From NCBI GenBank assembly GCA_036172245.1, contig JAYWIR010000037.1, positions 1,178,001 to 1,242,000 on the forward strand: 64,000 nucleotides of DNA, written 5' to 3'. Below, one piece after another: positions 1 through 56,119 of the stretch. Positions within the stretch are counted from its first letter, which is position 1. Each line of letters begins with the position of its first letter. The notes beneath the pieces were generated by a model. That model searched no databases. It was not told the origin of the DNA and saw only the letters and a program-made list of their open reading frames with translations. The stretch comes from Raillietiella orientalis (taxonomy: Eukaryota). The translations under genes were made by a program, and so were the position numbers.

Positions 1-1396
1 CAGAAAACCGAAAGCAGAGGGTGATGAACGCAAACGGACAGCACGGCCGAGACGCATACGAGACGCCTTATAGGCCACCTGCCAACGGACATCACGAACT
101 CAGTATGGGTCCTACCATTCTTCAGAGAGAGGTCATTGGGAAACCACATCCAGTAGCATATAAGGGAATTCAATAGGCCAAGAAGTCATATACGTAGTGG
201 CATGAATGCCTCGTGAAAGAGATATCTCAGCTTCTCTAAAAGCTCCATTTAGCCGAGATCGAGGAGGTGGTTCATCAATGCTGAAGAAAGACCGGAGGCA
301 CTATCCTTACAAGTGGGCAGGGAAATTAGGATGCGTCTCTAACCTTCGTTCAGGGCACTCTGTACCTTGCACCATCGAGTTGACTTCAACTTTGTGTGCT
401 GTTTCAGAAAGGAGTCAGCAAGAAAGAGCCGCTTAGAAGACACGCAGACCCTTCCCAGGCAAGTCGGCTGAAGGCGTTTGGTATGGTGACTGCAGCATTG
501 TTGACACTGGAGGAACACGTCGGTCTCCACCCTCAGGACAAGAGTGCCGTGTGAGTCCATCCGAACCAAAGTGTACGTTTCAGTATACAGATCCCCGTAT
601 TGTTGAATCGAAGAACATGCCTGCTTCACACTTTTTCATAAGGGGTCGAGACGAAGTCTTACGCAGGACCTCTCAGAAGGCATCTTCTGCAAGCGCGATG
701 GAGGCCAAGGAATTCTTCGGAGGGGCCCTTGTTTTGTATCAGCCTTGGCTGCAGAACAAGATTCAGTTCCAGCTGCCCATCTAAGGGAAAGGTGCGCTTT
801 TCTTGAGGAGAGATGACTTTACGACGATGAGCCATTTCTGGAACCTTCAGCAAAGACACGTCGTGTACAGTCGCCAGATGTCAGAGCCTGTAGAATCGCT
901 CTCTATGCGGACACCTCAGCTAAAGAGGAGATGATTTGAAGAACAGTATTGTTCTCTAATGTTTGCAAGATTGTGGCACTTTCCAACCCAAAGATAGGTG
1001 TTGAAAGTTGAAGCCACTGGCTGTGCTTCGGAATCAAACGATGCCGGGTGCGTGATCCCATGGCATCCAGGAAAGGAAAGATTCTCCATTCTTAGAAAAT
1101 TCTGGTCACGTGCTTGGATTTCAATGATTCAAAATGGACTCGCCGCTTCTCAAACTTCCGAATCACTCTGACCCATGAACTATGAGTTTGGCTATTTCAA
1201 AGTTTCGGCTGCCAAATTAAGCGATGCTGACAAGCGACATTCAAAATAAAAAGTCCCACAGGATGACACACTACTAATTGAGGGATTTCTTTGAATCAGT
1301 GCTTCCGGAATGCAGTTTGCAGCTACACCCAGGAGTCTTGCGTGCTTGTCTTCTTAAGCAAATGAGGATTGGTAACTTACACCAACCGTATTCCAG

Positions 1397-1540
1397 CAGG
1401 AGGATTGATCGTTGCCACCCGGTCACGCCGGGGCGTTTATTATAAATTCTCTATAATTCGTGGTACGAGGCCCCACTACGGCCAACTCAACAGGACCTGC
1501 CGGGTTGCCGGTACGCAGACCTGCCAGGAGGATTGATCGT
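1397..1540. repeat. 112-bp insert flanked by a perfect 16-bp direct repeat (probable target-site duplication)
   Basis: CAGGAGGATTGATCGT occurs at 1397-1412 and at 1525-1540. Confidence 0.7.
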
Positions 1541-1773
1541 AAGCCTGAGGAGATTTCAGTGCATTTCGAATGTGCGGCACGGGATGACTCTTAGAATCCA
1601 ACGTCAACTGCTTTTCCTATGCTATCGGAAAATCTTCGCCTCGCCACCCTACCATCACGTCATCACTTTGTTTCGTTGTAACAGAAAAGCGTGGAGCATA
1701 ACCCACACAATGGACAGAAAGATGTGTGCGATCACCTCAACCTGGAATCTGCTACCCACGTTGCGTTCAAATG

Positions 1774-1900
1774 CTGTCCCTCTTCTCTGGCAGCTGAAGA
1801 CCCAAGTTAGGGGATAGTCCGTACGGGGTCGTGAGTCCAGGAAGGCTCCAGAGAAAGTAGCTTATTCCTCTTATGCTTGGTAGGGAGATCTGGATGAAAC
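1774..1900 (+). mobile_element. Diverged fragment of the LINE 5' leader (copy F), opposite orientation to copy A
   Basis: GAGTCCAGGAAGGCTCCAGAGAAAGTAGCTTATTCCTCTTATGCTTGG matches the reverse complement of 8760-8815 (GAATCCAGGAAGGCTCCAAAGGAAGAACTCCGTTTCTCTTACTCTTGG). Confidence 0.6.
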
Positions 1901-4900
1901 TCTCGCCGTGGTTTCACCCGAACATGCCAGGGAGCTTATTAAAATTCAAAATAGACTTACAGATAGTGACGGAACACGTGGTCCTACCACACTCACTTTG
2001 TCCATGGACCTTCCGGGCTGCCGGTCCCAGACCGGCGAGGTTCACTTCGTAGCGGAGGGGAACGCAAAAAGAAATATAAAAGTTCATGAAATAAAAACAC
2101 ACACACGAGAAAAAAATGGAGGGCTGATAAGGGGTCACTGTCCGCTGGAGGGCGTCCTCTGCATCCTTTCCAAGTTGCTGGCTAGGTCGGTCTTGATTAC
2201 ACCCAGGTGGGGCCATCTTGCTGCTATCCGTAGAAAGCGATACTCGATGGCATCCCTCTCGTATGGTCCTCTTTGTGTATTGCTCCGCAGATGTAGCAAA
2301 GAGCTGCCAGTGCTGCGGCTGGTTTTCCTTCCCTGCCCAGCAGGAGCCTCAAGATTCGGGTTGCCGACAATTCCTTTCATCTCCTTACCTACTCTTTGTG
2401 ACTCAAACCATGTGCCGGCCAAGAACAGGTTGGCATCCACACTTCTCCCGGGAACAGCATAGGTCTGCTTCGGGCTAATTGCGGATTCCGCCGTCTGTCC
2501 CAATTGCTTCAGTTTCGCCAGCAAGTCGGCGTCCGCGTTCAACACGGTGATCAGACGTCAGCTGCTTTTCCTCAGGTCTGCTCCTTTAGGGAGGAGATAC
2601 GCACCCTTGCTGATCGGAATGGAGAGGAAATACCGTTTGCATTCCGAGTAAGGAAAGTTAACTGATGCATCAGGAGGGTGAGCTCTGCTGCTAAGTACTG
2701 TCAAAACTCTTCAGGCAGGTCGTCCTCCCCTGGTGCTTCGAGTCAAGTAGGACTCCTTCTGACCTCCTGTATAGGAGCGTACGCACAGCCTCCGTGCTTT
2801 CAAGATGCTCCTCGAATCAGTCGGTGTTCTCCAGAACGCAGAGTCGTGGTTGCAACGAGATGTTGCATCCGCGCCATCGTTTCGGACCTCCATGTGCTGG
2901 AGCTTCGAATGCAAGGGGGTCACCCACATGGGAGCTGCCTTGATGAGGACCGTCTCAGGGTGGTCTTACCTCCAGTAAGTTTCCAGAGAGATCAGTGCCA
3001 GCATACAGTGCCAGCTCTAGGAAGAAAGAACTGCTGGAAATCAAAGACTTCTGGCCCTAGTCCCCTTTCCTTTAATTACTTAGTCTCCTCTCTCCCACTC
3101 CAGACTTCCTTAAAAATCAATCTGAGTGCCGATAGTCGTTCCTGCAGAATTCTTTTTTTTTTTTGTTGTTGCTTTTTAGGAACTGAGTTCCCAATGACTT
3201 ATGAGTTTATTTTTTGATAAACGTCCGGCGTCATCGAGTCAAAATGCAAGCTGGGAAGGATGTGCCTGAGGTGTGTTGCAGAACACTTCCGGTTCCAATG
3301 CCGTTTGAAAGGTAATTGTCTATTCAGAGAATCTAGCTCGGGAAATCCTTAGTCCCTCTTTTCTATGAGAGTACTCTCATGGCCAATTGCTTTCACTGCT
3401 CGGCCATAGCTGCACTTTTGGGCTGGCCTGACCTTCGATGAGCATATGCTGAGAAATCACATGGGTGAGCTGCGCATGCTACGATGCAGGGAGACATAGT
3501 CTTCCTTCAAATAGAATCAGTAGCAATAGACAAAGGGAGGGAGGACGAGGACCACGCCCTGAGTTACTGAGAGCCACGGCTAACCACTTTCAGCACCCTG
3601 GGGACCGTATACGAGTTCCTTGTTCTTCCGTTCTTACATGCAGCGATTCAGTTTAACTCCGCTAGAAGGCATGCTGCTCAGGGGCAGTGCCGGTCCAATG
3701 TGCAAAGGATATGCAGCCTGGGAGGAGTTGCTTGAAAACCTGCTTAGCCACTGCACGATCAGCATCGATGCAATCACCGAATGCCATGATGAGCCGGCCG
3801 ACAAGCCCAGAGAAATGAGGAAAGGACACCAGGAGATTCTGACATGCAACAGAAGGGACACCGGATTCCGATCTCGTCTGGCGCTGCAGGGCGAAGAGAG
3901 GACAGTGACATTCGGAGTCATCGTCGCCCCTTTCGAAAGGAGCCCGCGCTGAAGGCCGTGTGCCTTAGGTCTCCGCACTTGACACCAAGCGTTACGAGTT
4001 CGAATCCCCATGTGGAGGATCGACTCCAGAGGAATGCGTGAGTCGTGAGTTTCGAGTCTTCTCCGCAGGATGACGCTGAATGGTCCGTGGACTTTGTGTG
4101 AGGCACTGTGGTGGGAGCCGGAGACCTGATGTCCCTGTCGACCTATCTAGATTGGAAGGCGACTCTCTGGAGTCCTTCCAGAAATCAGGGAGCCGGTAGC
4201 CTTCGAGGCTCCCCGCCATCGCGTACCATGAAGCTGACTGGTACCCTCGGGTGGTTGCCTCTTCATATTGCAAGAAGTGCGCTACTGTCTTCAGGAGCGA
4301 CACTTCAGAGAAAATTTGGAAGCGTCCCTTTGATGTCCTCTTTTGAAGAGGACATCGAAGTCATCGCCGTCCTTGTTTCTTCTTCAGAAGAGGAAGAAAC
4401 GGAAAGGTTCCCTTGAGGGTTCCGTCCGTAGAAGATATGAAGAGTGGTCCCTCAGGAGAGAGTGAGAAAGAGATTCCCTCCCAAGCGTAAAAGCAACGGA
4501 CTTTTTTCCTCCGGAACCTTCTGTTGATCAGCATCAGGATGAGTATGCGGGGTAATGGAAAGATAGAAAGTACTGAATCCAGCCCTACGTTTTGCCCCCA
4601 CGGCAGCGGCCCCATCTCCGTACGCGCTCTGGTGGAAGCATCCCTCGGTACGAAGGGCTCGGAAAACTCCAACTCAAGGAGCTCATAAATCTTAGGGAGG
4701 CGAGCAGGACACTTGAAGAAGGAGATGGTGAACACCACCGTTCAGAGCTTGCGGGGGGTCTGTCGAACACTTCGAACAGACCACTCCCAGTAATCCGGCA
4801 TGCAAGCAGCAGGAACGACCATGGGAAAAAGTAGAAAAAGTATGGAGAATATGGGAGACTCCCACCCTCCCACAGACATTCCGTTTCACTCCTCATCGGG

Positions 4901-5533
4901 CACCTCTTCGGTGCGCTTTCCAGTCTGAACGGAAAACCTTTCGACCGGCTGACCAGACAATAGAGGTCGTTTGATGAAACGAAATGGCAAGCCCAGTTTG
5001 CGTACCGTTGGGCATCATTGCTGTGGTTTCGCTCCTTTGCAAAGTTAGTAGTAGAGGCAAATCTCTCTGCAATCACCTGGAAACCGGATCTGAATGTTAT
5101 AGACATCACAGTCAAAGGATGGATTCCCGTCTTCCGTGGATTGCTGCCACCGACTAAACCACTCAAGGTCTATACGACCTCAAGGTTGGATTTCATGGCA
5201 AACCGAAGCCTCTTGACTGTTGCGGTGGCAACCGGTCATCGCGGCCAAGTGCAGCTTGCTAATTAAGACATCTTTCATTTCAAGCTCACGATCCATCAGT
5301 ATGAAAGAATAAAGAGGGTAGAAGCTCGTTTTGCATCCGGATGCTGCTAACTAGGAGGAAGCATCTTCTTTTTAAGGATCATTGTCATGTGCTTTCGAAA
5401 CTGACATTGGTAATCAATACTATCAATACAACGGGAATAGCATTCATGTACAAAGCAGAGAAAAATCGACTTTCTCATCCTGGATGTCCGGACCATTCGT
5501 TTAAATAGAAAAATAAAAGTAAAAGTAGCCAGA

Positions 5534-5885
5534 GGGCAACATGCCGAAACGAAAGGAATGGATTGGAATTAAAATCCCTAAAATCCATACATACATTTAC
5601 GTACAAAAACATATAGGTATAAATATATGTGCAATTATACATAATAAGCGTATATGTTTATTTTTTATAATCTTCTATGTATATATATACATATGTATCA
5701 ATAATATAATCAACAATACAAAATAAATAAATATTTACGTTCAAATAACATTACCGTTAATAACACGTATGTTAATAAATATGAAACACTATGGATGTTA
5801 AATTAAATCTTTATATTAATACCTATAGAATAAGCACATATATTTATTTTCTGGATTTTAATTGGCACCGGGAAGAGGTTACCCT
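5534..5885. mobile_element. AT-rich MITE-like element (family shared with 15622-15949 and 17357-17942)
   Basis: Abrupt AT-rich block with shared internal motif AATAAGCACATATATTTATTTT; left end GGGCAACATGCCGAAA resembles the termini of the other two copies. Confidence 0.45.
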
Positions 5886-6049
5886 CACTGGGGACAGAAC
5901 TAGGGAGGAGTGCAGGGGAAGGAAGGAGGGTCAGTGGATAACGGTCTCGGTGCTTTGTGTACTGGGGTTTCGAGCTAGTCTGTCCACTATCCCTCAAAGG
6001 TCCTCGTGTGCTGACATCCCAGATGGGGTTATTTCATTGCCACTGCCAT

Positions 6050-8885
6050 GTAGCCGATGGCGATTGAGAACATCTGGTTCCTCAGGATGACGGTCCTCCA
6101 TTTTAGCGGTCACCGCTGCCCCTGCTCAGCGAAGGATTTTCAGAGAGGTACCGATGACCCTGATGGAGTAAAGATGCCTTTAAGCAGGTGCTGAGGGATG
6201 TGGAATCGGTGAAGCGCGGGACACTAAGTGCTCCAGCACGGGAGCATCCCTTGGAGAGCTGCCCTCTCGGGGGTGCTGAAGTTCCCTGCCCCGAAGGAAG
6301 ATTCAGTGTACCAGCGAGAAAGCTGACCAATGACTTTTTATTTGAAGGTGCAAAATTGCATGTCGCTCCTTTGTCACGTGCAAGAAGTTAAAGAGTGCCC
6401 GATGACAGTGCCGATTCATTCACCTGGAATGCAACGCGGGAAGGAGACAAGGACGTCTCCGATGAAGGGAAAGACGACCTTCGGTTTCCCTGTCGCCATT
6501 TTTCCTGTTTCTTTCGTTCAACGAGGCAAAAAACGACGAAAGCCCTGTAGCCAGCAGCGTCCAGAACCAAGTCGTGCACACTGCTTCACTGCAATCGTCA
6601 TTTGGTTTCAGGGGACTGCTGTCGCATCCAAGAAGCATATCCCGAGAAGTGCAGAGTGGCTCTTGAATTCGACGAGATCTGCTGGACCTGCTGCTTGTCT
6701 TCGCCGCGTTTCAAAATCTTTAAGCTGCGGAAAGAAAATGGAGAGAGCTTGACCGGGTCAAATTCTCTTGATTTTCAGCCGATGGAAAGAGAAATGAGCA
6801 CTAGGAATCATTTTGAGGAATCGGAGAAGTTCTTATCATAATAAGAGCCCAGCAAAGAGCCAGAGATTGGGACAGACTGGAAGCAACTTTCACTTCTTGT
6901 AAAACAGAGGCGATTGTTGAATCTGCGATTCTGGTTTTTCAAGTTTAAGAACAATGCAATTAGGAGGAGATCTAAGTTTTATCTCAATCTAATCTCCAGC
7001 TTCATCGTGTTTTACAACAGGTTTTCTGATCGGACTTCTGGGCTTTTATCTCCTTTAGGGCTGGTCAAAAGTTTCCATCCAACACAGACGTGTTCAGTCA
7101 AAAACAAATTCACGCCATTCTTTCTTGATTACGTAACGATTAGATCATCTTTTAGGAAGCGGCATTTTGGATTGGTTCTACACGAGATGGCGAGTATCAG
7201 ATTCACACCTCATGCACACCAGCTTTTCAAGACTGCGGCAGTCATTCTCCTGTTGTCATGAGTTATTTTCTCATCTGCAGGAAAAATTTTCCCTTGTACT
7301 GCCATGGCAGATGCGTGTAAGTAGGCGATAGGATCCACGAGACAAAAAGATGACTGCACTCACCGGGGTTTCTGAATTCAGGACTGGAGGATCCACGGCT
7401 GAAGTTCCGCAAAGTAGGAGGAAATGATCTTCAGAAACTTCCATGCGGCTTCCTCTCCCGGTGAAAGAAAAGGAAATCTCCAAAAACCTTCGAAACAGAT
7501 CGCACCACACGTTCAGGGCAAACGTGCGCTGGTCGGAATCGCGAAACCGCCGAAGATCAATCAAAAGCATTTGCTTTCGCTATGATGCGTAGCATTCAGA
7601 TGCAACATGGGGATGCTGTGTCTAGAGAAACGCACGCCTAGTTCCCAGTGCCCATGCAAGTGAACTGACTGCCCCCCTCCTCCCCGCTTCCCTCCATTTT
7701 TATATTGCTCCCCGATCTTTGTACCTTTTATCATTTCATGCCAACATGCATTCAGAAGAGCAGACTCGAGACGACCGTCTGAAAGGAGGCGAAGTCAGTA
7801 GCTAAAATGTTGTACGCCGAATCGATTCCAACTTCCACCTCATACCAGGCACCAGAGTTGCAGTGATGACATTCTCAGAGATATGCAAAGAAGGGAGGTG
7901 ATGATTGAGTCTTTCGAGAGAGAACACTGACTGCATGGATTCGAAGCATCTTTGGAAACGAAACTTTCGAAGCTTCGGATGCTTTCTACTTCCGAACGGA
8001 AGGTCCGTGCTAACTGTAGATCGCAAGAACATCTCCGAGACTCTTCAGACAAACACATCCAACGAAGCAACAGGAATACAAAACGGGGCGAAGGACGCAT
8101 CGCAGACTTTCATTCGAGGATCGGTTCATGGAGGAGGAAGCGCAACACGGGCGGGAGACGTGTCCTTCCACATCTTGACCAGGTCAGCAGTTTCAGATTC
8201 ATAAGAATGAAAAGGAGTTTCCTGTGATTCGGAAGCTGAGCTGAAAGCAAAAACTGCTTGAATTCCAAATCAGAGCTGCAAGAAATGACTCCCTGCACAG
8301 CAAAAAGAAGTGCCCCCACGGCACGGAAAGAGTGCAAAAAGAACTCTAACGGGTTTGGCTGAACAGTCTGTTCCACTAGTCGGTGAACTTAGCCACACGG
8401 CACGCCAATGCGTGACGTGTGTGCCCCTCCAGGAATGAAGTAGCCGGTACCCTTCGCGATTCCCCTCCATCGCGTACCATCTAGCTGGTTGATACCCCCT
8501 TCCCCCCCGGTGGTTGCCTCTCAGAGTGTAAGAAATCGAGCTGTTCTCTTCGGAGCACGCCCTGCAGAGAAAATTCAAAGCGTCCGTTCGCGGTTTCTTC
8601 TAGGGGAGTAAACAAGGAGCGGTTCTCTTGAGGGTTCCCTTCGGAGAAGGAATTCCAAAAGCGTATTCTTTCTGGATTCCCTTCGGAGAAGAAATGAGAA
8701 GGAGCCCCCTTCAGGGGTACTTCTCTCGGGAAAATGAGGATGAGGATACCTTCGGGATTCTCTCCCAAGAGTAAGAGAAACGGAGTTCTTCCTTTGGAGC
8801 CTTCCTGGATTCATAGGGTGGTTCCCCCGGGTCACCCCCTATCTTGAAGAGTTGGAACAACGCACCCTCGGGTGGAGTGGGACAG
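6050..8885 (-). mobile_element. Decayed L1/Tx1-like non-LTR retrotransposon (copy B) with complete structured 5' leader (about 8420-8885)
   Basis: Leader homologous to 51440-52102 and 55575-56119. ORF 7271-7570 reads LIDLRRFRDSDQRTFA...SEDH...RGSYRL (APE endonuclease C-terminal motifs). GQLSKGCS near 6250 resembles the RT motif GxRQGCPLS. Confidence 0.6.
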
Positions 8886-9519
8886 AGGACACTTCCATGG
8901 TTGGAACACTCATGCTACTGTTTGTGTCCAGGAACAGAAGTTGAGTATTGTCTATTCTATTATCATTGCTCACAGCTTCTTCAAAACATGCTAATAAACT
9001 ATCATCTTGAGGTTGCCTGCTATTTTGCTCTTTTTCTCCATCTAGCTTTCCATCACCATCCCAATCAATTTTAAACCTGATTACTCTGGGTGCTGTGGCC
9101 AAAATATTGCGGGTCATCTTATCATAAATAGGAGTTGGAGGTGGATTCTCTCTCATCTCCTGGTCCAAATATTCATTATTTACATAATAACCAACACGGA
9201 TAAATTCTTGCCCTTTGTATGAACAAGTCAATAGCACTACTGTTACTCCCACAGCATCTTGCAATGGAATCTTGCTAGTATCAGGAGGATCAGCTTGAAA
9301 CACAAACATGTGCCTCCCCTCTGGAACTGGACCAACATATACAGTATCTAAGATCTGGTCATACTCTTCACTTTCTGCTGACCCAACATAAATTATCTTC
9401 CACTCCAAGTCTTCCGCTAGATCTTCTATACACTCAGATGTTATTTCGAATTGAAAAGGATTATTAAAGGGTGATGGATTGTCCAATACAATTACATTTG
9501 AAATATGCACTTTAGCCAT
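8839..9519 (-). CDS. ASF1: Histone H3-H4 chaperone ASF1, intronless, 226 aa; probable retrocopy whose last ~15 codons and stop come from LINE sequence
   Basis: Unmistakable ASF1 N-terminal domain (MAKV..NVIVLDNPSPF.NPFQFEIT.ECIEDL.EDLEWKIIYVGSAESEEYDQILD...GVTVVLLTCSY.GQEFIRVGYYVNNEY...PRV.RF.IDWD). Open frame; D54, V94 and R108 retained. Functional status uncertain. Confidence 0.95.
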   Translation of the reverse strand: MAKVHISNVIVLDNPSPFNNPFQFEITSECIEDLAEDLEWKIIYVGSAESEEYDQILDTVYVGPVPEGRHMFVFQADPPDTSKIPLQDAVGVTVVLLTCSYKGQEFIRVGYYVNNEYLDQEMRENPPPTPIYDKMTRNILATAPRVIRFKIDWDGDGKLDGEKEQNSRQPQDDSLLACFEEAVSNDNRIDNTQLLFLDTNSSMSVPTMEVSSVPLHPRVRCSNSSR

Positions 9520-9539
9520 ATGTTTCTATACCCGTTTCG

Positions 9540-11100
9540 AATTCCGTCACTGTTCACACAAGTGAGTCCGGGAAAACGGTTTTTGAGAACGAGCAGCTTA
9601 GCGTTGTCCGGGCGACCGCCGCATCCGCCGTCTTTCGCCGATCGTCCTCCATCTCGAAAGTGCACCGGAATGCTACCGAAGAATGTTTGAACGGTCCATG
9701 GCTTCGTCCCCTCAAACCGTCTGAAGTGGTGGCATTGCGCCCGAAGCCCATATACCACCTTCTTCCTTCACGTCCGTCTCGAAATTTCGACAGAGGGCAC
9801 CAACACGAGTTGCGAGAAAACGTCTTTCCTTGCCAGCAACAGAACACAAAGTCACGCCTCTCCGTATACGATTCAAGGAAGGTACGTGGTACACGGCCCC
9901 TCTGCTCTCCGATACATGCCATGAACAATTCAGTCATAGAACCTCAGCGAGTACAGTTCTGTTTCTACGGTGGAAAGCGAAAGCATCATTTTACTTACCG
10001 CTGAATTTGAAATCTCAACTGATCCCTGAAAGGATTTATCTCGTTTCTTTAAGCAGAGGGCTTTTCCGTTTGGTACCACTGCGGCAGAAATTCATCTTCC
10101 TGGTAGCTCTTCCTGCATTCGGCGATTCGGGAAGATGCTTCTTCTCAAGAGTGGAGATGGCCCGGTGGTGGAATATCTCTTTTACGAAGAAACAAAACTG
10201 TTTAGGAGAAGCTGCATGCCAGAAAATGCAAGTTGGCGAGCATCCACCCAGGAAGGGACGGGACGATATCAGAATGTGGTTCGGCGTCCTTTCGATCGCG
10301 GGTGCCCAAGTGCGACTGTGAACAAATTCTAGATGGGTGCAAACGTCTTCAAGCTCAGTACGTCGACTCCTGGGTCTTCGCGGTGTCAGCCACGGTGTTC
10401 AGATGGACAACGATTGAAGAGACTCTTTGAGACCATTTCAGAATGCCTGGCGGTAGTCGGCGAGAAGGAAATTCGATTTCCGCGAATCGTTCGGTTTTGA
10501 ATCAGCGGTGTGATTTGTGAATGATGGCGTCTCGCGTGCCTTTTTCAGAATCGCAGCATTCGAAGAGCACTTCCTTCTTCAGAAGAAGAGGCTTTAGAAG
10601 CTTCCATTCACTTCATCGGGCTCAACTTCGTCGATCAAACAACTTGAGGTTTGCATTTGTAAACAAAGTTATTGAATTGCTTGTTTAATAAACATCGGAC
10701 GGCATTTAGCATGTTGCGGGTAGACTGAGAGCGATCGGTGCATCTCGCGCTCAGTTTTCCATCTTTTTGCTGCAGCGAGGGGGGAATTCTCCGGAAATTT
10801 TATCTGTCTCAGAGCGTGAGGAGAGATGAATTTCGACCTCGTTGCGTTTCTCAGGCTGGCTTTGCACTGAATGTTAGATTGCTTGCAAGTCGCACACGAA
10901 CTTTTCACGTGGTGTATGTACATCCGAAGCGTGCACGGGAACGTATCCTCACGTGTGAGGATACGTTCATCTGCTCACTTTCATTTTCCTGTTTCGCAAA
11001 AGAGAATCTTGCTTCCCTGCTCACCACCCCCCACCTTCTAGGTTCCATTGTGTCATGACTTCTGCGCCAAAGTGGAGAGCAGCCATTGCCGTGAAAAGGA
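9540..11100 (+). mobile_element. Decayed non-LTR retrotransposon RT region (L1-like), plus strand
   Basis: ORF 9660-10004 contains SRNFDRGHQHEL (cf. EKAFDRVxH) followed by RGTRPLCSP...IEP (cf. RGxRQGCPLSP...EPL); weak zf-RVT-like remnant near 10950. Confidence 0.5.
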
Positions 11101-11702
11101 ATTCGCAATTCTTCACCGAACTCGTGATTCCGCTCTCATGCAAAGGAAGAACCCATCTCGTCCTGAACCTTCTTTTCAGGTCGTCAGCTGTGCCTCATTT
11201 CGGCACCATGGAAATTCAAATGGCAAAAGTCTTTTTCCGAGAGCGATGCCGTCCTTCCACCTGTGGCTGAATTCTTTCTAATTATCAGAGCCTTACAAAG
11301 TCCTGACATCCTCCTTACGACCGAGGAGGAATTTCGTTTCTATTTGCCTAAACTTAGGGAGAGCTGCTACTGCAAAGTACTCGAATGCAGGAAAAGATGC
11401 GCTGCGAACCGCTAAAGATTTACTTTCTGGATATTCCTTGCGTTTTCCCTCACAAGCCTGCAATGCGGGGGAGGGGAGGGATGTCCGCACAAAATGCTGT
11501 ATGGCTTCCTTTCCTAGAGCATTTGTGCATCTTTCATTTGCAGCATTCAGCTCAAAAGCAAGCCTCAGGTGCGTAACTCCTGAAGGTAGGCATGCCTTTT
11601 CATTTTAGTAACCTCTCTTATTAGATCTTCATTAGAGATCATTCGCAAGTGCCGTCCTCTAAGTTTGGAGCAGTCTAAACCGTGCCCCGTTTTGCGCATC
11701 TG

Positions 11703-11703
<1 letters not shown>

Positions 11704-11751
<48 letters not shown>
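11704..11751. repeat. 48-nt T homopolymer (possible young poly(A) tail on the minus strand)
   Basis: Uninterrupted T run read directly; no target-site duplication found. Confidence 0.85.
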
Positions 11752-11754
<3 letters not shown>

Positions 11755-14700
11755 AACTTTACGATTTTAGTTTCACTATTAATTTGATCAGCATGTTGAT
11801 AAGAATTACTTTCCAGAAAGTTGTAAAAAAAAATAGCGAGTAACTGATGTGATTACTATATACGTTTGCGATAATTTGTTTTCCCACGAGGAGGGAAGTC
11901 CACCCATCCTTTGACCGAGGTGTTGTCTTACGGCGAAATTGCAGAGCGCTCTCTTGGAAACAGCAATGGCGCGCATAAATTTTGCGGCTGGAAACCTTGG
12001 TCTCCACACGAGCTGAAGTGCTTTCTAGAAAATTTAACACTACAGTTAAAATTGAAAGGAGGACATAACAGAAAGTTTTTCATTTCTGAAGGAGATTTCT
12101 CACGTTTTCCTTTTTTCCTTTAAAAAAAAAAAAAAAAAACTCGATTGAATAACAAGAAAACAAGTGATCAATCGTATTGAGTATATAGATGAAATGGGGG
12201 AGTGATGGGGGGGGGGGAGACTATTTTTTCGAGTTTCCTTGAAGCCCACAAAGAACACCTATCTCACGAAAGCGTTCAGTCACCACCGGTTAAAAACGCA
12301 ATCGCATTTGCATGCAAATTTAAGTGACAGTAGTCTTTAAAACTACAAACAGCTGCAAATACCTTCCTGCTTGACTTGCAGATTTGCAAAGGATGATTTC
12401 CAAAGGTACTTCCATTTGAGTTTTTTCAACTTGGTCCATGTAAAGCTCGTCGAAGAGAAATTAAATCCTATCGAATCACTACTGGTCCCCGGACCAATTA
12501 CGTGTTACCTCTCTCTCTACTTTTTGGGGGAGCATCTGGTACAGGATTACTCTTTTTTTTTCTTTCTTTTTTAGCGAATCGGTTTCGGAATTCGCACGAA
12601 GATGAACTACCGGATGCTGATTTTTTCAGAATCAGAGAGGAAATGATCATAATCACAATGCTGAGATCACAGATTGACTTGATGGAAGGTGTCCCGAAAC
12701 GTATATGTGTACGTACATAATCCGGAAATACGTCACTTCGCCAGATATCGTGTTACTTGCTGGAAATTTATGTGTGTATGCTAATTCAAGAATTTCTCAC
12801 TCAGTATAGGCATGTGACCTCCACAACTAAGTTTCTTTATCCAGCCAACCAATTGAAATGGAAATGGCTCCATTCGCGTTGATCGTCCTCATCACTTCTG
12901 CTGGACCAAGTTTTCCTTTTAGGAAAGGAGAACGAAATTTCCTGCCGAATATAAGGTAAAATATCCATTCTTCCTGAGACACAGTCGAAAATGGCAATTC
13001 TGTTTCGAACAGAGACCGCTTTTATATTTATTGCCTCACGAGAGACACTTTGTTATCTGCTTCCACGCATTGCATCTGAGAGCTGCTCCAGGATTTTCCA
13101 AAATATAAGGAGCTGCAAAAGGCAGACGTTTAGGGAGAAAACCGCTTTTAGAACTACAGAGTCAACTGATTTAAGGAAGTATAGTTCTTGAAATTTCTTA
13201 CCCTCAGGTAGTGCTACCAGTGATAAATGTTCCATTATTTCATTTCTGAGATGATGTGCCTTTAACCAGTGCCTTGAGGTCCCTCTGTTTTTACGGATAC
13301 TTTATTTTCCGTAAAAACACAGTTGTGGACTTACATCCAAGGGGTGAAAAACATTCATATTTCATTTCCTTGTGCTGGAAAGTAACCTCCCAAAGAAACG
13401 CATTTTGCTAAGCGAGATCCAGAAGCTGCAAGGAAAGTCTAATAGCTGCAGTTCTCTAAACGGTACATTCCGTTTCATTACAAATCTTCTCGGTTTCGTA
13501 AGGCAGAATTCCTTTTTTGTCGGAGGGACCAGCGAGATGAAGAAGCTTTCTTGCATAAAATTTGACTCAGTCGAGGAGATTTTCGTAAACAAGGTAACAA
13601 AACAAAAAGTGATAAAATCAGTACGGCAACAGCACATCCCCATCACTGATAGATCCTATACCATCCAAAATGTGACGTGCAATCTGACGTGGAGTGTCAG
13701 GTTTTCCTGAAATGCACGAGCAGCCGGAGGTAACGAGCATGACGCTGCCACACTTGTGTGGTTCGATTCTTCAGCCTCGATCCGGTAAAGTTTCTGAAAA
13801 ATCTTCTGGAAAATTCGAAAGTTTATTGGAGATTTCGAAATTCTGGGAGAGAGGTGCCTTTCCTTTCTTTGTGAGATCTCTCAGGCAACGCCTGAAGATT
13901 GTATCAAGAATCACATCACGAGGCCGTACAATACGGAGAACGGAGGACGGTAGAAATGAACTGATCCTCGTCATTTGTGCTCAATCTCAAACGTTGAATT
14001 AAAAAATCTGTTGCAAGAAGGTCATCAAGTTTCTGGAGGCCATTGTTCCACTGTTGAAGCCATTCAGCTTGTGAATGAAACTGCCATGCCCGGCACGTCG
14101 ACTGTTGGCGAATTCTGGATCGCCACCAAACGAGAACCAGATCTCACGAGAAAGGAAGAGAAACCAAGGAAAGACGAGTCAGGTCGCTGCGTGCGTTCCC
14201 AGTACCGCGCATAGATGGCAGCAGTCCACGCATCCCCGTGCCATCCTTTTGTCGCTCATGTACCTTTTCCTAGTGAGCTCGTTTTCACCTCTGTATCCGG
14301 CTTGTGCTTTCGAGTCTGGTCTCTCATGAGTGGCAGGAGACAAGATGGTTTTCATTGGGAACCGCATCCGTGATTCCATGAGAACACAACGGATCGAAAT
14401 TTTCGGGTCTCATTCGATTTTTGTCTCACTCGAGCGCGTTGCTGCTTCTCTTGCAATACGAAGAGAATGACAGCAGCGAGCCATCCTGTTAAGAACACCA
14501 GAGTTGAGAACACCAGAGAACGGGAAAAGGAAAGCGCTCTTTGAATGGAAGACTGGTGAAGCAGAAAACATCGACACCTCCATCTTTTTGTCAGCCTCTC
14601 CATCTTATTGTCAGTTTTCTTCGCGGTCTCTGAAAGCACGTGCTTTGCTATGAAAAATGCACGTGTTTCTACCTGATTTTTCCAACTGGGAAGTTACTCC

Positions 14701-29200: not shown

Positions 29201-30536
29201 ACAAGCACAATGTATTCACTTCATTGAACATTTTATTGATTTATTAGCTGTTTTGCTAGGTTGAGTTCAATCGTGAAATGCATTGCGACCTGAGTAACGA
29301 ATTTGTTTTAGTAGATCTCACATCCAGCTTCACACAGAGCTGCATTAAGCAAACCTAAAGTATGAGCACCAGTCCAGTTTCTGAGAGATGCAGAGGTTTC
29401 CTTTCCTTTTGAATTTACGATTACATGATTCAACTTCTTACATCCATCAATAACAGATGACTATTCCTACAGGTTCCAATTCAAAACTCGGGATTGGGGA
29501 CACGCAAACACCACTGCTCTTCAGTGAAGTTAAGGTTAATGCCAGTGCCTTTGAAAGTACGTGAAAAATTTTCTAAATTTCTCGCCCATCAATCATGGGT
29601 TCATGCCAATAAAATACGATCGTTTCTTCATACTCAAGCAAAAAGCAAAAAAACCGCGCAGCCCCGATCAAAAAAATCAGCCACACTGCGGTTACTCCAA
29701 TCCCATAATGCCTGATAAAACGGTGCAATTTGTAACCTCGTAAAATGATAAATATTTAGAACACATGCTTTTGAGGAAAACTTACAGCAAAACTGTTTCC
29801 CCCGAGGAACGACGGACTTCAATTTACAAATCCACTGCTATCCCAAGGCTGAACCGACAACACACACAAAAACACAAGAATCTTCACACGCACCTCCAAA
29901 ACAAAAACAAAGTCGGAAACGAAACGCTACGCTACTCTTGACATATTCACTTTGAAATAATCAAAGGTTTGCTTGGATAATTGTACATTAGTCTTACAGT
30001 TTCCATATCAAATAAGGAATTGCGCCCTTACTTTTAGCAGTTTGAAAACGAAAGTAATTTTTTTGAGGTGCTGAGTGAGTCCTGATTCTTTTGATCGAAA
30101 TGAAATCACTGAGACTCGATGCTGGCAGAGCTCCACCTTTAGGTTTCAGCATTGGTGGTACTTACGTAGTTATCATGCTCAATACCTACACCCAATACAT
30201 ATGTATATAAATATACGTTTATCCTCCGATTAATTTCATGTTGTAACTGCTATGTAGGTCACTATTTGTAACTTGCACACCTGCATGCATAATGCAAATG
30301 GATATATTTCAAGAGCAGTCTGAACGGAGCAGTCTAAGCTGAACGAGTAACATCATTTTGGAAAATTTTATCCATTATAATTATAATAACATGGCAAGAC
30401 TCGTGACATATTTAGATGTGTGAATAGAATGGAATATGTTATGCAGCTTTGGCTACTACTCATATTTTTGTAATACATATACATGACGAAAGTTAACATG
30501 AAAAATATTATTTTTTTCAAATGAATAAGTTTATGT

Positions 30537-33500
30537 TCAGGAAGTTACTTCTGTACCAAGTTGTGATAGCTGAAATTCCAATTATTTCATGTTAGAAAGT
30601 AATGCAGAAACTGCTTACTTCTTTGAGAAACTGGCTGCCATTACTGAGACAGGTGCATCCATAGATAATTCTCTTTGGATTCTGTCCACCACGGCTCTAC
30701 AGTAGAATGAGTAAAATGTATTATCTACTGATTTGCTTACTTTAGTGTATTCCACAAGGTTTTGATACTCAATATAGTTGCCACCACCTACCATGAACAC
30801 TAATGCTTCCTGAAAGGGTGATCGTGTTTTAGGCATTGGCATCTGCTCTGCAGGTCTTAGAAATTTTGGATCAAAATACCGATATTCATCTACTTCTGGA
30901 TTTACTTTGTGTTCCATGAGAGCATCTGTGATTCGGGTTACCGGAAGATTCTGGTAGGATACAAGATACTGTGCACATCTCCCAATCTAATCTACATGTT
31001 TCTTCACAACAAGATTTTTCACTCCTTCCATTACAAAAGAAGAACCTTGGGACATCAGCTTAGAAAACATGCTGACTGTCTTGGTCTCACCACCGGAGAA
31101 CTGTGAAGGATGGCTATATGCTCTAGGAGGGGCATAACATGTGATAATATATTAGCATTCCCTACTTCCAGCGTTTCAAGTATGCCAGCGAGCTCAAATC
31201 ACAGCCTGCTGCTTTTAGTGCACTGGTAAACTGTTCCATCTCCATCTGTTAAGTGACATAAGACCAACTATCCAGTAACAGATCTTACCTCATTCATAGG
31301 AAGCCCACAAATATAAGCAATGAGAAAAAGTCTCAAGCGATCATCAGGGTTACCAGCACCTTGTGTAACCAGCAATTCCATTAAAGGCTTACTGTCAGTT
31401 ATAGCATGACTCATCACTTTCTCTTCTATCTCAAAATAAGTATCCAGTTTTCTGGATTTGATATGATCTAAGATGGCTACATCATGCATAAAACCAAAGC
31501 CAAGTTTTCCACCAATAAGACCTGCCTGTAGCTACAGTAGTGTGCAAATCAATAAGACGTTTCTTCTCAAGCAGCTCAGGTAAGGAACTCACTGCTGATG
31601 TCAGAATAGCTGTATTATCCGCCAACAAACTGATGGTCTCATCAGCTTCGCCATCCAAGCCCTAGACCCACTTAGTGCTAAGGAAGTTCAGTTCAACTAA
31701 CCATGGAAGACTTCAGTCTCTTCACTTCATCCTCTGAAGCACGATAACGATCCAGCTCTTCTTGAACAGCCTCAGCAACTGCTGGAAAAGGGCTACAGAG
31801 ATTTGCATTCCAAAACGTACAATTCTTGTTTACCTGCCTTTCTGAGCAACCCAAAACTTGTCTTTAGGGTTAAGCTCAAACATCTTGTTCTTCTTTCGCT
31901 CAATCTCTTTGAGAAAAACTCGGTTGAGGCGAAGATCAAGAACATCGTGAGCAAGAGCTTCATAAGTCCAGGGATGATGCAAAGGTGTGGTCAGATCAAT
32001 TGAACGATCCAAAATAACTAGCAAAGGGCGCTGAAAGCTGCATCAATCATAGCTTTCAATTTTATTCAAAACAATCATCTGTTCCGACCTGAAATGACCT
32101 CCCTGTATGTAGTCACCTGCAAACAGACTGTTCCTTGTATCTCGAAGATTTTCTCTCAGTTTGCGATCCAGCTTTTCAGCAACCATTTCTGCAGCATTGC
32201 CTCTTGGGCAACGAATTATAGGAATAGCACCTGATTGCAAATAATTACTTTGCAGCACAATGTTCAAAACTTACTCAAAGTAACAAGTACAGAAAAAAGA
32301 CCATCCACTATCTCATTCATTATATCATCTACATCCACATCTTTTAATTTGCAGTGGTTCATTGCTTAAGAGGTAGAATTAATTTTCTGCTTCATTTTTA
32401 CTTTACTTACCATAGTATGAAAGTGTTTCATTATTAGGTTTCAAAATAAACAAATCATCCTCTAGAGCAATGAAATTCATATACTGATCATACACCTGAT
32501 AAACATAAAAATATAAAATTTAAAATTTGAAATCAAAGCATGTGCAAGACCTTTTGAACATGTGACACACAGCTAGCCTGCAAAGCTGCTGAAGCTAAGG
32601 TTTCTAGCTTCTCTCTAGATATCGGTGAAATGAAGTTAAGATAATAGGATTCATAAAGTCCTGCATTGAAATCCTGAGCAACCTGCACAACATTTTCTTT
32701 TGTAGGTAACACAAAATACACAACAGGTACATCTGGAATGCTATCATGGTCAGCATGCAATAATCTACAAAAAAAAGAACAAGATTTCATAATGCCAAAA
32801 TGTCCTGTTATTGCCAAAGGGTAAATTTGGGCTTGCAAATTGTAACTACATTAACTAGAAACTCTCACATTCACAAAAATGTTTCTAATAGTAAAATTGT
32901 TAACAGTACATAAGAAGCATAATAATTAATAAATCAGTATTAATAAATGCAATATGTTCTTAACACCACAATTTGTTGAAGTTGCAAATTTTATCATAAT
33001 CGGCTGCTAAAATTTCTGATGCTCTCGAATATGGCACAGCATAATTGTTGATCTGCATACAAAAAAATATCTTTACACCAAAACTTATAAAAGTACATAC
33101 TACATGAAAAAATGTAGAGTAAAAATATTTACTATATATGCAAATTGAGCAAAGAGGTTGCCTTTTGAAGAACATATATGCAGCAAAAAATTAAGGTGAA
33201 AACAAATCATTAAATTTGCTCACTTAATGTGCAAATTTCAATGTTTTTTATGTAACAGTACGATCCAAACTAATAGAGAAAATTTTAAACAGCTAAACCA
33301 TCTAGTTTAAAAATACATTAAAAAATGATAGTTTCCAACAGAAGCTATGAATGAAAATATTTAGGAAAGGATTACCCTTGAATTGTTCTAAATGCATAGA
33401 AGACACTCACAAAGTGCACTTCCAATCATGTCTTTTCTAAACCTGAACAAAATTGTTGACCACAGACATATTGCACTACAAATAATAAATTACGTAGTAA

Positions 33501-41520: not shown

Positions 41521-41749
41521 GCCATTGCTATAAAACTGCCCTGACCGATATCAAATTTCTCATTTAACGACATTTCCTGGCACGTTTAGTCTTTCATGTG
41601 TATCATAACCCAGTTTCATTTTTGTGTCATAACCGAAGTGCTCAAGATCCCAATCAGAGCGCTCAAGATCCCAACCAAAATCTGGCACCTGCATTCTTAG
41701 AATATACAGGCAATAATGAGACGTGTGCAAATGGCTAATTTATCCTTAA

Positions 41750-42450
41750 AATTTGCTGTGGTTTCCCATTATAAAGTCAGTGTCAATTATAAAGGTGAGG
41801 AGTGACCTGCTGCTCAGCAAAAAGGAAGAAACTCTTTGGCAGTGGTCAATGAGAGAGCTGACGGACGCTGAGACCCCGAGTGTTCCACCTAAAGCACTGC
41901 TACATGAGACCCATCTTTCGAAGATTCCTCCAGAAGATTTGATGCTGCCTGCTACACCTGCGAACAGCTCCATTCTCCCTTTTAAGTCGTCAAAAGTCGG
42001 CGCTGCTGGTCATGCATTGGAGCTTTTCCCATGTGAAGCAAGCCTTCATCACTGGACCCAAGGGCGTGTGAACCCGAACTGTGCCAGGTGTGGGGAAGGA
42101 GAAACTCTTCTGCACCTGCTTGTGGACTGTGTTGCCCTTCGGCATCTTTGGGACCGTTTTTCGACCAGTTCCCTAACAACAACCTGAGAGATGTTGTCAG
42201 GCACTCTTCAATCACAAGCCACCATACTCGTGATTAGCAACTTTTTGCTTACTGAGCAGGGTAGTGGGGGTGTGCAACGCCAGCAGAAGTTTCTCTCATT
42301 GGACGGAGGTGCCATCCAATAAGAGAAAAACTTATAAGGATTGCCGCGATATGTCCCCATCTGAAAAGCACTAAAAACAAACTTGGCAGCATCATCCAGA
42401 GGATGAACGTAAAGCAACCACTGTGATCCCATCCAGAACACTCCAAATAA
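41750..42450 (+). mobile_element. LINE 3' fragment with zf-RVT domain
   Basis: ORF 41753-42187 has CARCGEGETLLHLLVDCVALRHLW, a canonical CxxC...ETxxHL..C...W finger. Confidence 0.75.
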
Positions 42451-50600: not shown

Positions 50601-52102
50601 AAAATAAAAACGGAAGGTAGAGAGGGTAGGGACTTTGAGAGGAAGGGTCTTTGGCATGAGATGCGCCATTATTCCTAGAACTGCTGCTGAATGATGGCGA
50701 TTTCCCTGGAGACTTCTTGCTCCAGGTGACGCCGTCTCTCATTCGGCTGGCTTCATCCGGGTGAAGCCAGACTAATGAAAACGGTTGCCATGCGAGTCAC
50801 CACCCATCGCTGCACCGGCAATTCGAACACATGGTGGTCTGTGATGACGACGCGGATACAAGGTCACGTTGCAATCACGCCTCCTGACGAAAGTCTGCCG
50901 CACGCGTAGAATCTTCGCAGATAGTCCATGGAGGTGTCCCCAAGGTTCAGGAATGCTCAAGGCAGACTCCTCCACAGTGCAGCCATGGGGGGGAGGAATG
51001 ACTCAATCGACCCGCACCTTAAACAGTTTTAGAGACGTATTTCCCCCGGAAACCAGGTGCCTGCACCGGGTACTCTAGTGAAGAATTATCGGTAGATCCT
51101 GTTTCCAACGCAATGGGAACACCGAGGTGTTGGTACACGGATTGACCTCGACTTCTTCGGGTGGCACACTAAACAGCTCGCTCTACCGAAGCAGTCTTCC
51201 CGGGGACGAGGAATAGAGGCATTCACTAACTCCCTCGTAGAGGAACGAAACAGTCGCCATGACCCACGTCGGAGGCTTTGTGGTTGAGGCTTCCGAGCGT
51301 GGCACCATGCGTCGCGGGATCGAATACTCCGGCAGAAACTGACGCAACTGCGTCGTTGGGTTCCGAGTTTCTCCTGCAATGGCGCTGGTTGGCCGAGACA
51401 TTCGGGCGTGGCACCGATGGTCCTTTAAGCCGGAGGCCCCTGATGAAGGCCGGAACAATGGGAGTTGACCTTCAGGTCCTTCCAGGAATCCAAGGAGTGG
51501 GGAGTTCCCCCTCCGGTCTTGTACAACGGAGAGCAAACCCCCACACCGGGGAACCCCTCCGGTTTCAACATGGAGCAAGGAGCCCTCACGGGCACCTCTC
51601 CTAGTTGTTCGATGGAGCGGACCCCCCCTGTTGCGGGGGGGGACCCTCCGAGTCGTCGCTTCTTCACAGAGTGCAAGGAAGCAAGCGAGAGTGACTCCCT
51701 GTGGGAAGCTGCAGCGCCCCTTTTGAGATTTGGCAGCGTCCCTTCGGGGTTCTCTTCAGAGGAGTGAACAGGAGCAGTTCCCTTGCAGGTTTCCTCCGAA
51801 GAAATTCCTACTAGCGGAATCCTTTCCGGATTCCATTCGGGGAAGTTGAAATGGAGAGGACAGCCCCTCCCCATTGCGGGGGGTGTCCCTCCGGAGAGAA
51901 TAAGGAAGGAGATTCCTCTTTGGAGAAAACCAGTGTGGAGATGATCCCCATTTCCGGGGATCTCTCCCCAGGCGTGAGAGGAACGGACTCCTTCCTGGAC
52001 GAAGGCGTGAGAGGACGGAGTCCTTCCTGGATTCATAGGGAGGACCCCTCCCGGGGTACCCCCTATCTTGAAGACTACCCACCCTCGGGTGGCGTGGAAC
52101 CG
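47700..52102 (-). mobile_element. Decayed L1/Tx1-like element (copy C) with complete structured 5' leader (about 51440-52102)
   Basis: LQEK (cf. LQET, about 51375), ELVNASIP (cf. LVNVYAP), ITDH (about 50840), RT segment VEFYQ...EDLRNIGKWRPITAVN.YARLL..LWAERL..IIGPEQAYAVPRR...NLF (49390-49680), AETSAYVF (zf remnant, about 48060). Confidence 0.8.
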
Positions 52103-52140
52103 TGTCGAAGAACTGTGAAGACAAAAAAGAATTTCCATCT

Positions 52141-52800
52141 GTCCGAAGAGACCCTTAGAGGGGTCCGCTCCGATTTTTCTTCTCTGAAGGGAACCCGGAA
52201 GGGATCCGATCGTGTTTTTACTCATCTGAAGAGAACCCAGAAGGTGACGCTTCCGAAATTCAGAAGGACGCAGCTTCCCCGAAGGGATCGGCTCACGTCT
52301 CTGAACTCCCTGGAGAGGTGGTGGCGACACAGCTACTCTATCAGTCCGACGCGGAAGGGTACTCCCCGGAATGGGGGTCTGCTCCTTCACAACCGGAGGG
52401 GAGCTCCCACTCCGTGATTCCTGGAAGTACCCGGAGGTCGACTCCCATTTGTCATGGCCCTTATCAGGTGGCATCCGATTTCAACCGCTAGCAGTGCCGC
52501 ACCCGGATGAATATCGACCAACCAGCGTCATCTTGTGGGGTGAACTCGGGACCCACGACGCACTGCGTCTATTCCTTCGCAGTATTCGAACCCACGACGC
52601 ATGATGCCACGCGCGGAGACCACCGTAACCACACGGCCTCCGACGCGGGCTGTCGCTTCTGAAACATCCTCTCATCTACGTTGCTCGGTTTCGCCAAGGA
52701 AGTCTCCGGTTGCACTTTCCAGTTCGAGATAGGCAGGAGTCCCACTAGCTGGTTGCTCAGTTTGGGAACTTCTGATTTCCGTTCAGCCATGGTCGGCTAG
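52141..52800 (+). mobile_element. Partial leader plus endonuclease start of the same LINE family (copy D), head-to-head with copy C
   Basis: 52500-52660 is a diverged reverse complement of 51240-51420; 52141-52470 carries the same hairpin modules as 51440-51900. Confidence 0.8.
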
Positions 52801-55574: not shown

Positions 55575-56119
55575 GGGGTTGCGGCACTGGTGGAAGTCGG
55601 AAGCTGGAGGCCCCTGTTGAGTGGCCGGGATTGGAAGTTGACCCTATAGAGTCCTTGCAGGAATCAGGGAGCCGGTTCCCTTCGGGATTCCCCTCCGGTT
55701 GTGCAAATGGAGTCGTCACCCTTGAGAGGGTGACCCTCCATCGCGTGCCATGAATCTGGTGGGTTGATACCTCTCCGGAGTGTGAAGAAGTGAGCTGTTC
55801 CCTTCGGGAAAGCGCCCTTCAGTGAAATCTGGAAGCGTTCTTTCAGGGTCCACTTCAGAGAAGGGAACAAGAGGCGATTCCCTTACGGATTCGCTCCGGA
55901 AAAAGATGCTGCAAAAGCGGATCCTTTCCGGATTCCCTTCGGAGGAGCAATGAGGAGCGGTCCTTTCAGAGTCCCCCTCTAGAGAAAATAAGGAAGTGGT
56001 TCTCTCCGAAGCGTAAGAGGAACGGACTCCTTTCTCCGAAGTCTTCCTAAATTCTAAAGAAAACAACTCTCGGGGTACTCCCTAGCATCACCACCTCATC
56101 ATTGGGTGGTGTGGAACAG
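55575..56119 (-). mobile_element. Isolated complete 5' leader of the same LINE family (copy E)
   Basis: Collinear similarity to 8420-8885 and 51410-52102, ending at the same terminal motif (plus strand GGGTGGTGTGGAACAG). Confidence 0.8.

Follow-up and report, generated by a model that had tools for sequence, protein, structure and literature searches.

An intronless ASF1 reading frame that ends in a short repeat: a possible processed gene copy with a repeat-derived tail

How does the reading frame of a histone chaperone come to end inside a repeat, with the junction placed on the terminus of that repeat? The question is raised by a stretch of 64,000 nucleotides from Raillietiella orientalis (GenBank assembly GCA_036172245.1, contig JAYWIR010000037.1, positions 1,178,001 to 1,242,000 of the forward strand), called the window below, in which the minus strand of positions 8839-9519 forms one open reading frame (ORF) of 226 codons (226 aa) with an ATG start and a TAG stop. 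An earlier note on this DNA had described the ORF as an intact ASF1 copy fused, in the same orientation, to the 5' terminus of a long interspersed element (LINE). The intact frame is indeed there, with a full ASF1 domain. The explanation that we tentatively favour is that a processed ASF1 copy had its stop codon struck by the 3' end of a short retroposon lying in the opposite orientation.

The translated ORF matches PF04729 (ASF1_hist_chap) with residues 1-154 on the whole profile (profile positions 1-154), with E 5e-73 and a score of 244.5 bits against a curated cut-off of 27. Among solved structures, human ASF1A is the best relative (E 1.1e-78). By these matches, the protein belongs to the ASF1 family. 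The 120 database relatives listed of 3116 showed 61-85% identity to it in the best local alignment of each; the named ones are mostly arthropods, with no identical protein among the 120. A query with the tail only (residues 150-226) returned 4 candidates, zero of them with E up to 10, and there is therefore no close species in the searched collection. In a quick tree of 121 ASF1 sequences the window protein falls into an unresolved polytomy, which gives no placement, and its end branch of 0.93, compared to 0.75-1.2 in other isolated taxa, shows no clear acceleration. We aligned the protein to 16 homologues. The ORF is colinear with the full-length homologues and thus contains no intron. The parts of the locus are as follows.

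8886..9519, minus strand: ASF1-derived coding block, made up of 211 codons and the T that remains of the lost stop codon; core at residues 1-154, native end MEVS at residue 211
8839..8885, minus strand: repeat-derived extension of 15 codons, SVPLHPRVRCSNSSR, and the new TAG stop; its first codon is split with ASF1
9520..9530, minus strand: putative remnant of the ASF1 5' untranslated region (UTR); 11 AT-rich, CpG-free bases before the ATG, with an in-frame TAG at 9526-9528
9531..11703, no strand assigned: CpG-rich upstream flank, with an observed/expected (o/e) CpG ratio of up to 1.35 at 9601-9800, ending at the 48-nt poly(T) of 11704-11751

The C-termini of the homologues locate the native end of the protein. 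In the alignment, M-E stands at the same column in 14 of the 16 homologues with the stop 1-3 residues later, and nine of the 16 have a C-terminal MEV followed by S, V or I. The window protein reads ...PTMEVS at residues 206-211, continues with SVPLHPRVRCSNSSR and then stops. Since the homologues stop so soon after M-E, the ASF1-derived DNA ends at 8886, the T of the lost stop codon, and this agrees with the boundary given in the earlier note. Compared to the known ASF1/ASF1A chaperones of H3-H4 (human ASF1A structures 2io5 and 1tey), the window protein is similar in its core, with approximately 80% identity to the cores of arthropod and human proteins, and in its acidic or polar tail that ends in MEVS. 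It differs in having no stop after MEVS and 15 added residues read from the repeat, in carrying F28S and T147I at highly conserved positions, and in being encoded by a single exon without recognisable UTRs.

The DNA on the other side of the junction belongs to a repeat with six copies or fragments in the window, which we denote A to F.

8425..8885, plus strand (probable sense): copy A; lacks approximately the left 210 nt of the unit, right terminus at 8885
3949..4520, plus strand: copy B; left terminus present, lacks approximately the last 85 nt
51263..52102, plus strand: copy C; both termini, 840 nt
52135..52649, minus strand: copy D; inverted relative to C, left terminus present, right part absent
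55580..56110, plus strand: copy E; right terminus at 56110, with an extra left-part fragment at 55194-55357
1774..1890, minus strand: copy F; only the right-terminal 115 nt or so of the unit

The fragment at 55194-55357 and copy F were found by profile search. Copy A is 70-79% identical to other copies over local matches (8425-8588 to 4174-4330, 73%; 8509-8812 to 55762-56054, 71%; 8796-8883 to 52017-52100, 79%). The terminal motif described in the earlier note lies at 8863-8885 and is found again, with 3 mismatches, at 52080-52102; 100 shuffled controls gave no match to it. Copies A (8885), C (52102), E (56110) and F (in reverse complement, 1774) share the end ...G(G/A)AC(A/C)G and diverge directly beyond it, so that four of the six copies or fragments seen have the terminus found at 8885. 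Position 8885 is a real terminus of the repeat. The last residues and the stop of the ORF are hence repeat-derived and the junction stands on the repeat terminus, a part of the earlier description that the four shared ends confirm. The other side of the unit is equally sharp, as copies B (3949), C (51263) and D (52649, inverted) have a common left end with unrelated sequence beyond. The repeat is a short unit of 0.5-0.85 kb with both ends defined. Reading it as bounded by long terminal repeats or terminal inverted repeats was rejected by eye, as its ends are not mutual inverted repeats and have no TG...CA. Copies C and D stand tail to tail and form an imperfect palindrome (51263-51561 versus 52649-52352, 74%), D being without the right part where C ends.

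In order to characterise the repeat, stop-free segments were translated and tested against Pfam with a threshold of E up to 0.01. They comprised 55 segments of at least 110 aa from the whole window, 132 of 45-109 aa from 1-12.7 kb and 140 of 60-109 aa from 38-57.5 kb, that is 327 segments. For the 45-109 aa set, 152 were found and 20 were omitted that lay over the ASF1 ORF, the repeat at 8444-8941, the poly(T) run and 12083-12625. None of the 327 segments matched a reverse transcriptase (RVT) or endonuclease (Exo_endo_phos) family. The matches obtained were Sec1 (E 2e-7) and, below the cut-off, zf-RVT, Misat_Tub_SegII, Lambda_CIII and ASFV_J13L. The weak zf-RVT match (E 0.0039, below the cut-off) lies at 41750-42184 on the plus strand, distant from every copy of the repeat. 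The earlier identification of the repeat as the 5' leader of a LINE is thus not sustained, given the absence of reverse transcriptase and endonuclease matches in these segments and a short unit whose far end is also defined. We compared the repeat to short interspersed elements (SINEs) that are tRNA-derived, have no poly(A) and are mobilised via a LINE-like 3' tail, as in the families of PMC3272025 and PMC4758252. The window repeat resembles them in being short and non-coding, in its defined ends and in its left-truncated copies (A and F). It also has a B-box-like motif near its left end, seen by eye 59-69 nt from that end in B, C and D, and a terminal hairpin before the right end. It differs from them in giving no tRNA by ARAGORN or Rfam and no visible partner LINE, and in that copies B and D are without the right end. 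The repeat behaves like a SINE without poly(A), its tRNA origin being putative.

The direction of the repeat matters for how the junction could have formed. Copy A lacks approximately 210 nt of the left part and copy F consists of the last 115 nt or so, both keeping the right end, which is the pattern of 5' truncation for a plus-sense element. The consensus of the last 180 nt or so, built from three sequences only, folds at -27.5 kcal/mol with 7 compensated pairs on the plus strand versus -22.9 kcal/mol with 2 pairs on the minus strand. The B-box-like motif, too, points to the plus strand by its place near the left end, and TTCG words number 21 on the plus strand versus 9 on the minus strand. 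We also matched the window, at 80% likeness, to contigs of one DNA sequencing run (X1, word share 0.07), and between 6 and 8 distinct contigs cover the right-terminal 8778-8795 versus 1-3 at 8589-8657, a contig depth that cannot rank parts of the sequence. Taken together, the hints suggest that the sense strand of the repeat is probably the plus strand, opposite to ASF1. If so, 8885 would be the 3' end of the repeat and ASF1 would stand tail to tail with it, an arrangement impossible for one continuous template-jumped cDNA, since such a cDNA needs both parts in the same orientation. Target-primed reverse transcription joins the exact 3' end of an element to target DNA. The earlier note had proposed either a template jump or a later insertion at the terminus; the polarity hints disfavour the jump, and the later insertion is now the better fit.

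The ASF1 part also stands out as a compositional block. The 634 bases of 8886-9519 contain 4 CpG (o/e 0.17) with GC 0.388 and GC at third codon positions (GC3) of 0.32, while the o/e ratio is 0.70 at 8425-8885, 0.87 at 8000-8424 and 1.28 at 9520-9999, with the upstream maximum of 1.35. This supports the earlier observation of a CpG-poor ASF1 part (about 4 CpG) between CpG-rich flanks, 0.17 versus 0.7-1.35. The CpG-depleted block extends from the stop codon to 11 nt before the ATG, and the 11 bases of 9520-9530 are possibly a remnant of the ASF1 5' UTR. Strong CpG depletion occurs in only one further part of the window, 30-36 kb, where o/e is 0.13-0.49. A Sec1-family exon lies there at 30618-30986 on the minus strand (Pfam E 2e-7), inside a 6-kb AT-rich block (30000-36000) that resembles a methylated host gene body with introns. 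We used this exon as the composition baseline for ASF1. The values for ASF1 versus the Sec1-family exon are 0.39 versus 0.40 for GC, 0.32 versus 0.35 for GC3 and 0.17 versus 0.33 for CpG o/e. The composition of the ASF1 part is close to that of a host exon and it is therefore host-like and not foreign DNA. That an intronless ASF1 stands in the same window as a Sec1-family gene read as intron-bearing was counted in favour of a processed copy. The segment 9601-9800, 80-280 nt upstream of the ATG, exceeds the rest of the first 13 kb in CpG o/e (1.35) and in GC (0.58); it is CpG-island-like and could be a promoter.

We then searched the flanks for the usual marks of a retrocopy. There is no poly(A) at the junction, and no A run follows the ORF; positions 1-13000 contain a single long homopolymer, the poly(T) of 11704-11751. 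No AATAAA or ATTAAA occurs in the 1.8 kb downstream of the ORF, and no TATA-like word occurs in the 580 nt upstream. The search for a target-site duplication gave nothing convincing: a single 9-mer is repeated at 4706, where the preceding bases are not stop-codon-like. A composition search for an ASF1 3' UTR to the left of copy A gave only short CpG-poor patches (3001-3200 and 6801-7000) and nothing tail-like, and the DNA left of 8425 is CpG-rich without a T run. No second ASF1 match exists within the 64-kb window. The flank searches, with the colinearity of the homologues, bear out the statement that intron, 3' UTR, poly(A) and target-site duplication are all missing. The earlier description of both flanks as transposable-element remnants holds for the left flank, which is copy A; the right flank, from 9520 on, does not recur elsewhere in the window and gave no Pfam match. 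The perfect T run of 48 nt at 11704-11751 (poly(A) on the minus strand) lies 2.2 kb upstream of ASF1, and an A run of 18 nt lies at 12122-12139, 370 nt past it. The two runs are probably tails of two other retroposed sequences.

The coding part is conserved. At the positions that are invariant among the 16 other sequences the window protein keeps 87 of 90, the exceptions being V10I, F28S and T147I. In a leave-one-out comparison the other 16 sequences differ at 0-6 such positions, and the isolated taxa among them at 2-6. Departures from the consensus of 121 sequences number 25 of 155 core positions in the window protein versus a median of 21; an equal or higher number is seen in 26 of the 120 other sequences. 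The core is as conserved as in working orthologues, which suggests that the copy is young or under selection. In a neutral simulation of the coding block, the share of runs with at most 3 changes at invariant sites fell from 86% at 1% divergence to 15% at 3%, 0.2% at 6% and zero at 10%. A companion neutral run gave a stop-free frame in 49%, 25% and 11% of cases for divergences of 3%, 6% and 10%. If the 70-79% identity of copy A reflects its age and not subfamilies, the ASF1 frame would have been held by selection. Selection on the ORF is plausible and depends on the age of the copy.

Forty contigs of run X1 matched the window, 39 of them only partly, and most of 5000-8093 and 9420-11600 is uncovered. 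No piece among the matches listed bridges 8885 or 9519. Two contigs follow ASF1 to 9408 and 9414 and then continue with different sequence, one of them as a divergent reading frame that is still ASF1-like in translation over 30 letters. Contigs that leave ASF1 at these positions hint at further ASF1-like loci, which may exist as a parental gene or as more copies.

With these results, the following course of events would account for the locus. An intronless, mRNA-derived copy of the host ASF1 would have been placed among repeats. A short, non-autonomous, SINE-like retroposon, truncated at its 5' end, would then have inserted in the orientation opposite to ASF1, its exact 3' end having primed at the T|A of the ASF1 stop codon. 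The insertion would have replaced the stop codon and all downstream sequence, so that the frame now runs 15 codons into the antisense strand of the repeat, to the new TAG. The ASF1 3' UTR would have been lost by deletion or in later events. As a genomic object, the locus appears closest to a processed retrocopy or retrogene, of the kind made by LINE machinery (the subject of a review, PMC5470649). It shares with these an intronless, host-like coding sequence in unrelated DNA and a frame that is intact, as in functional retrogenes. It differs from them in being without a poly(A) tail, a 3' UTR and a target-site duplication. A processed ASF1 copy with a repeat-derived tail is the most likely description of the locus, and it is possibly a functional retrogene.

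Several points weigh against this explanation. Beyond copy A, where the insertion model expects the ASF1 3' UTR to reappear, there is no 3' UTR, poly(A) or target-site duplication, and the model has to invoke a target deletion or later events. The block has both its edges very near the ends of the coding sequence, which is a coincidence under the insertion model; it is partly explained under any model, because only copies with the junction at or beyond the stop codon keep an open frame. With no parental intron-bearing ASF1 seen, the ORF could be the only ASF1 of the organism. F28S and T147I fall at positions that are at least 95% conserved. Copies B and D have no right end, which makes the count of truncation polarity 2 versus 2 or 3. 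Each of the polarity hints is weak and, as the copies are homologous, the hints are not independent. Finally, neither ARAGORN nor Rfam finds a tRNA in the repeat, and a match to 3943-4019 in a relaxed ARAGORN search was rejected as noise, such a search giving 235 matches across the window.

The same evidence should be read under other explanations. A rather unlikely alternative, which we nevertheless take seriously, is that the ORF is a native working ASF1 gene with a single exon in this lineage, with the CpG-rich DNA upstream as its unmethylated promoter and a repeat insertion tolerated at the stop. Conservation within the range of working orthologues would be expected of such a gene, as would a composition and CpG depletion that match the neighbouring host gene body, and the peak of CpG o/e 80-280 nt before the ATG would find a role. 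This ORF is also the sole ASF1 match in the window, and no closer ASF1 occurs among the matches listed of 3116 relatives. A native gene would, however, be intronless although the neighbouring gene appears intron-bearing, would have CpG-rich DNA from just 11 nt before its ATG, and would be without a polyadenylation signal over 1.8 kb downstream and a TATA-like motif over 580 nt upstream; the X1 contigs moreover hint at other ASF1-like loci. We consider it unlikely that the locus is a template-jump chimera, in which a reverse transcriptase at the 5' end of the repeat RNA switched onto ASF1 mRNA and produced a single cDNA with both parts in the same orientation. A jump would place the junction on the exact repeat terminus as observed, and the junction is free of ASF1 3' UTR, poly(A) and duplication; the jump fits the missing UTR if the minus strand of the repeat is its sense strand. 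TGTCC is present on both sides of the junction as possible microhomology. The template jumps described in vitro reach the acceptor RNA at its 3' end and not at an internal stop codon, whereas here an internal landing exactly at the ASF1 stop codon is needed. LINE chimeras of this sort are in print, including template-switch chimeric retrocopies of the U6-L1 type (PMC2104539, PMC4476161 and bioRxiv 10.1101/2025.02.02.635956). The window locus is like them in that two unrelated transcript-derived pieces are fused directly, one at its natural end. It is different in that its partner is not shown to be a LINE and its orientation is probably opposite, and in that the ASF1 acceptor would have been entered at the internal stop, without poly(A) or duplication. 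The lack of any reverse transcriptase or endonuclease match among the 327 segments, which leaves the partner without a visible LINE, the short unit with its defined far end and the polarity hints for the opposite strand all speak against a jump, and at the far end of the repeat there is again no poly(A) and no duplication, copy A stopping tailless at 8425.

Capture during repair is decidedly unlikely in our judgement. Here a double-strand break would have taken up, by ligation, a partial ASF1 cDNA truncated at both ends, next to or along with retroelement cDNA and with no target-primed insertion. A piece that consists of coding sequence only, is without poly(A) and target duplication and adjoins retroelement sequence is what such capture could leave, and retrotransposon and spliced-mRNA sequences are reported to be captured at DNA breaks in mouse zygotes (PMC4516963). 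An exact cut at the stop codon, a whole frame and an exact repeat terminus are not predicted by it. It is very unlikely that the ASF1 frame is part of a mobile unit, that is, that a retroelement family acquired the chaperone, through a template switch or by another route, spread and kept it under selection; in such a case the X1 contigs leaving ASF1 at 9408 and 9414 would be other members of the family. Among 37 long ASF1-domain proteins none is listed with a reverse transcriptase or endonuclease Pfam family, a blank that is weak evidence. An assembly artefact that joined ASF1 to the repeats is the explanation to which we give the least credence. It would produce the sharp compositional edges on both sides, and no read among the X1 matches listed spans either junction. 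Against it, a 151-nt X1 DNA contig matches 8909-9059 with one synonymous difference, although X1 may be the source sample; the frame is smooth through the junction, and an assembler has no reason to break exactly at the start and stop codons. We continue to prefer the processed ASF1 copy hit by the 3' end of an oppositely oriented retroposon, at the tentative level stated above.

If the ORF is expressed, its product would be a histone chaperone whose C-terminal tail stems from a repeat, and the locus would be a small, clean case of an essential chromatin gene whose end was rewritten by a mobile element. The ORF might also be a retrogene that joined or replaced the parental ASF1. If instead the frame were carried by a mobile unit, it would be a transposon-borne H3-H4 chaperone. 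Judged by title or listing, our literature search gave no paper that deals with a retrocopy of ASF1 or with ASF1 carried by a transposon. The locus also illustrates that an exact junction can mislead, as the same base, 8885, is readable as the 5' end of a LINE or as the 3' end of a SINE, with two different mechanisms as a result. The locus has the look of a processed gene copy beside a mobile element rather than of a new kind of system.

Two further observations concern other parts of the window. On the minus strand of 42637-43342 there are two adjoining fragments of eukaryotic 28S rRNA, matching positions 2412-2984 and 3007-3161 of the Rfam large subunit (LSU) model with 163 and 41 bits. They stand alone in a GC-rich block at 41-53 kb in which no other rRNA part was detected, with the zf-RVT match of 41750-42184 (plus strand) nearby. 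This is an rRNA pseudo-fragment, possibly carried by an rDNA-specific element. In addition, the segments 34865-35087 and 41528-41772 form the arms of an inverted repeat of approximately 220-250 nt, 75-90% complementary and 6.4-6.8 kb apart; a DNA transposon that sits next to the Sec1-family gene, or within it, may have these arms as its terminal inverted repeats.

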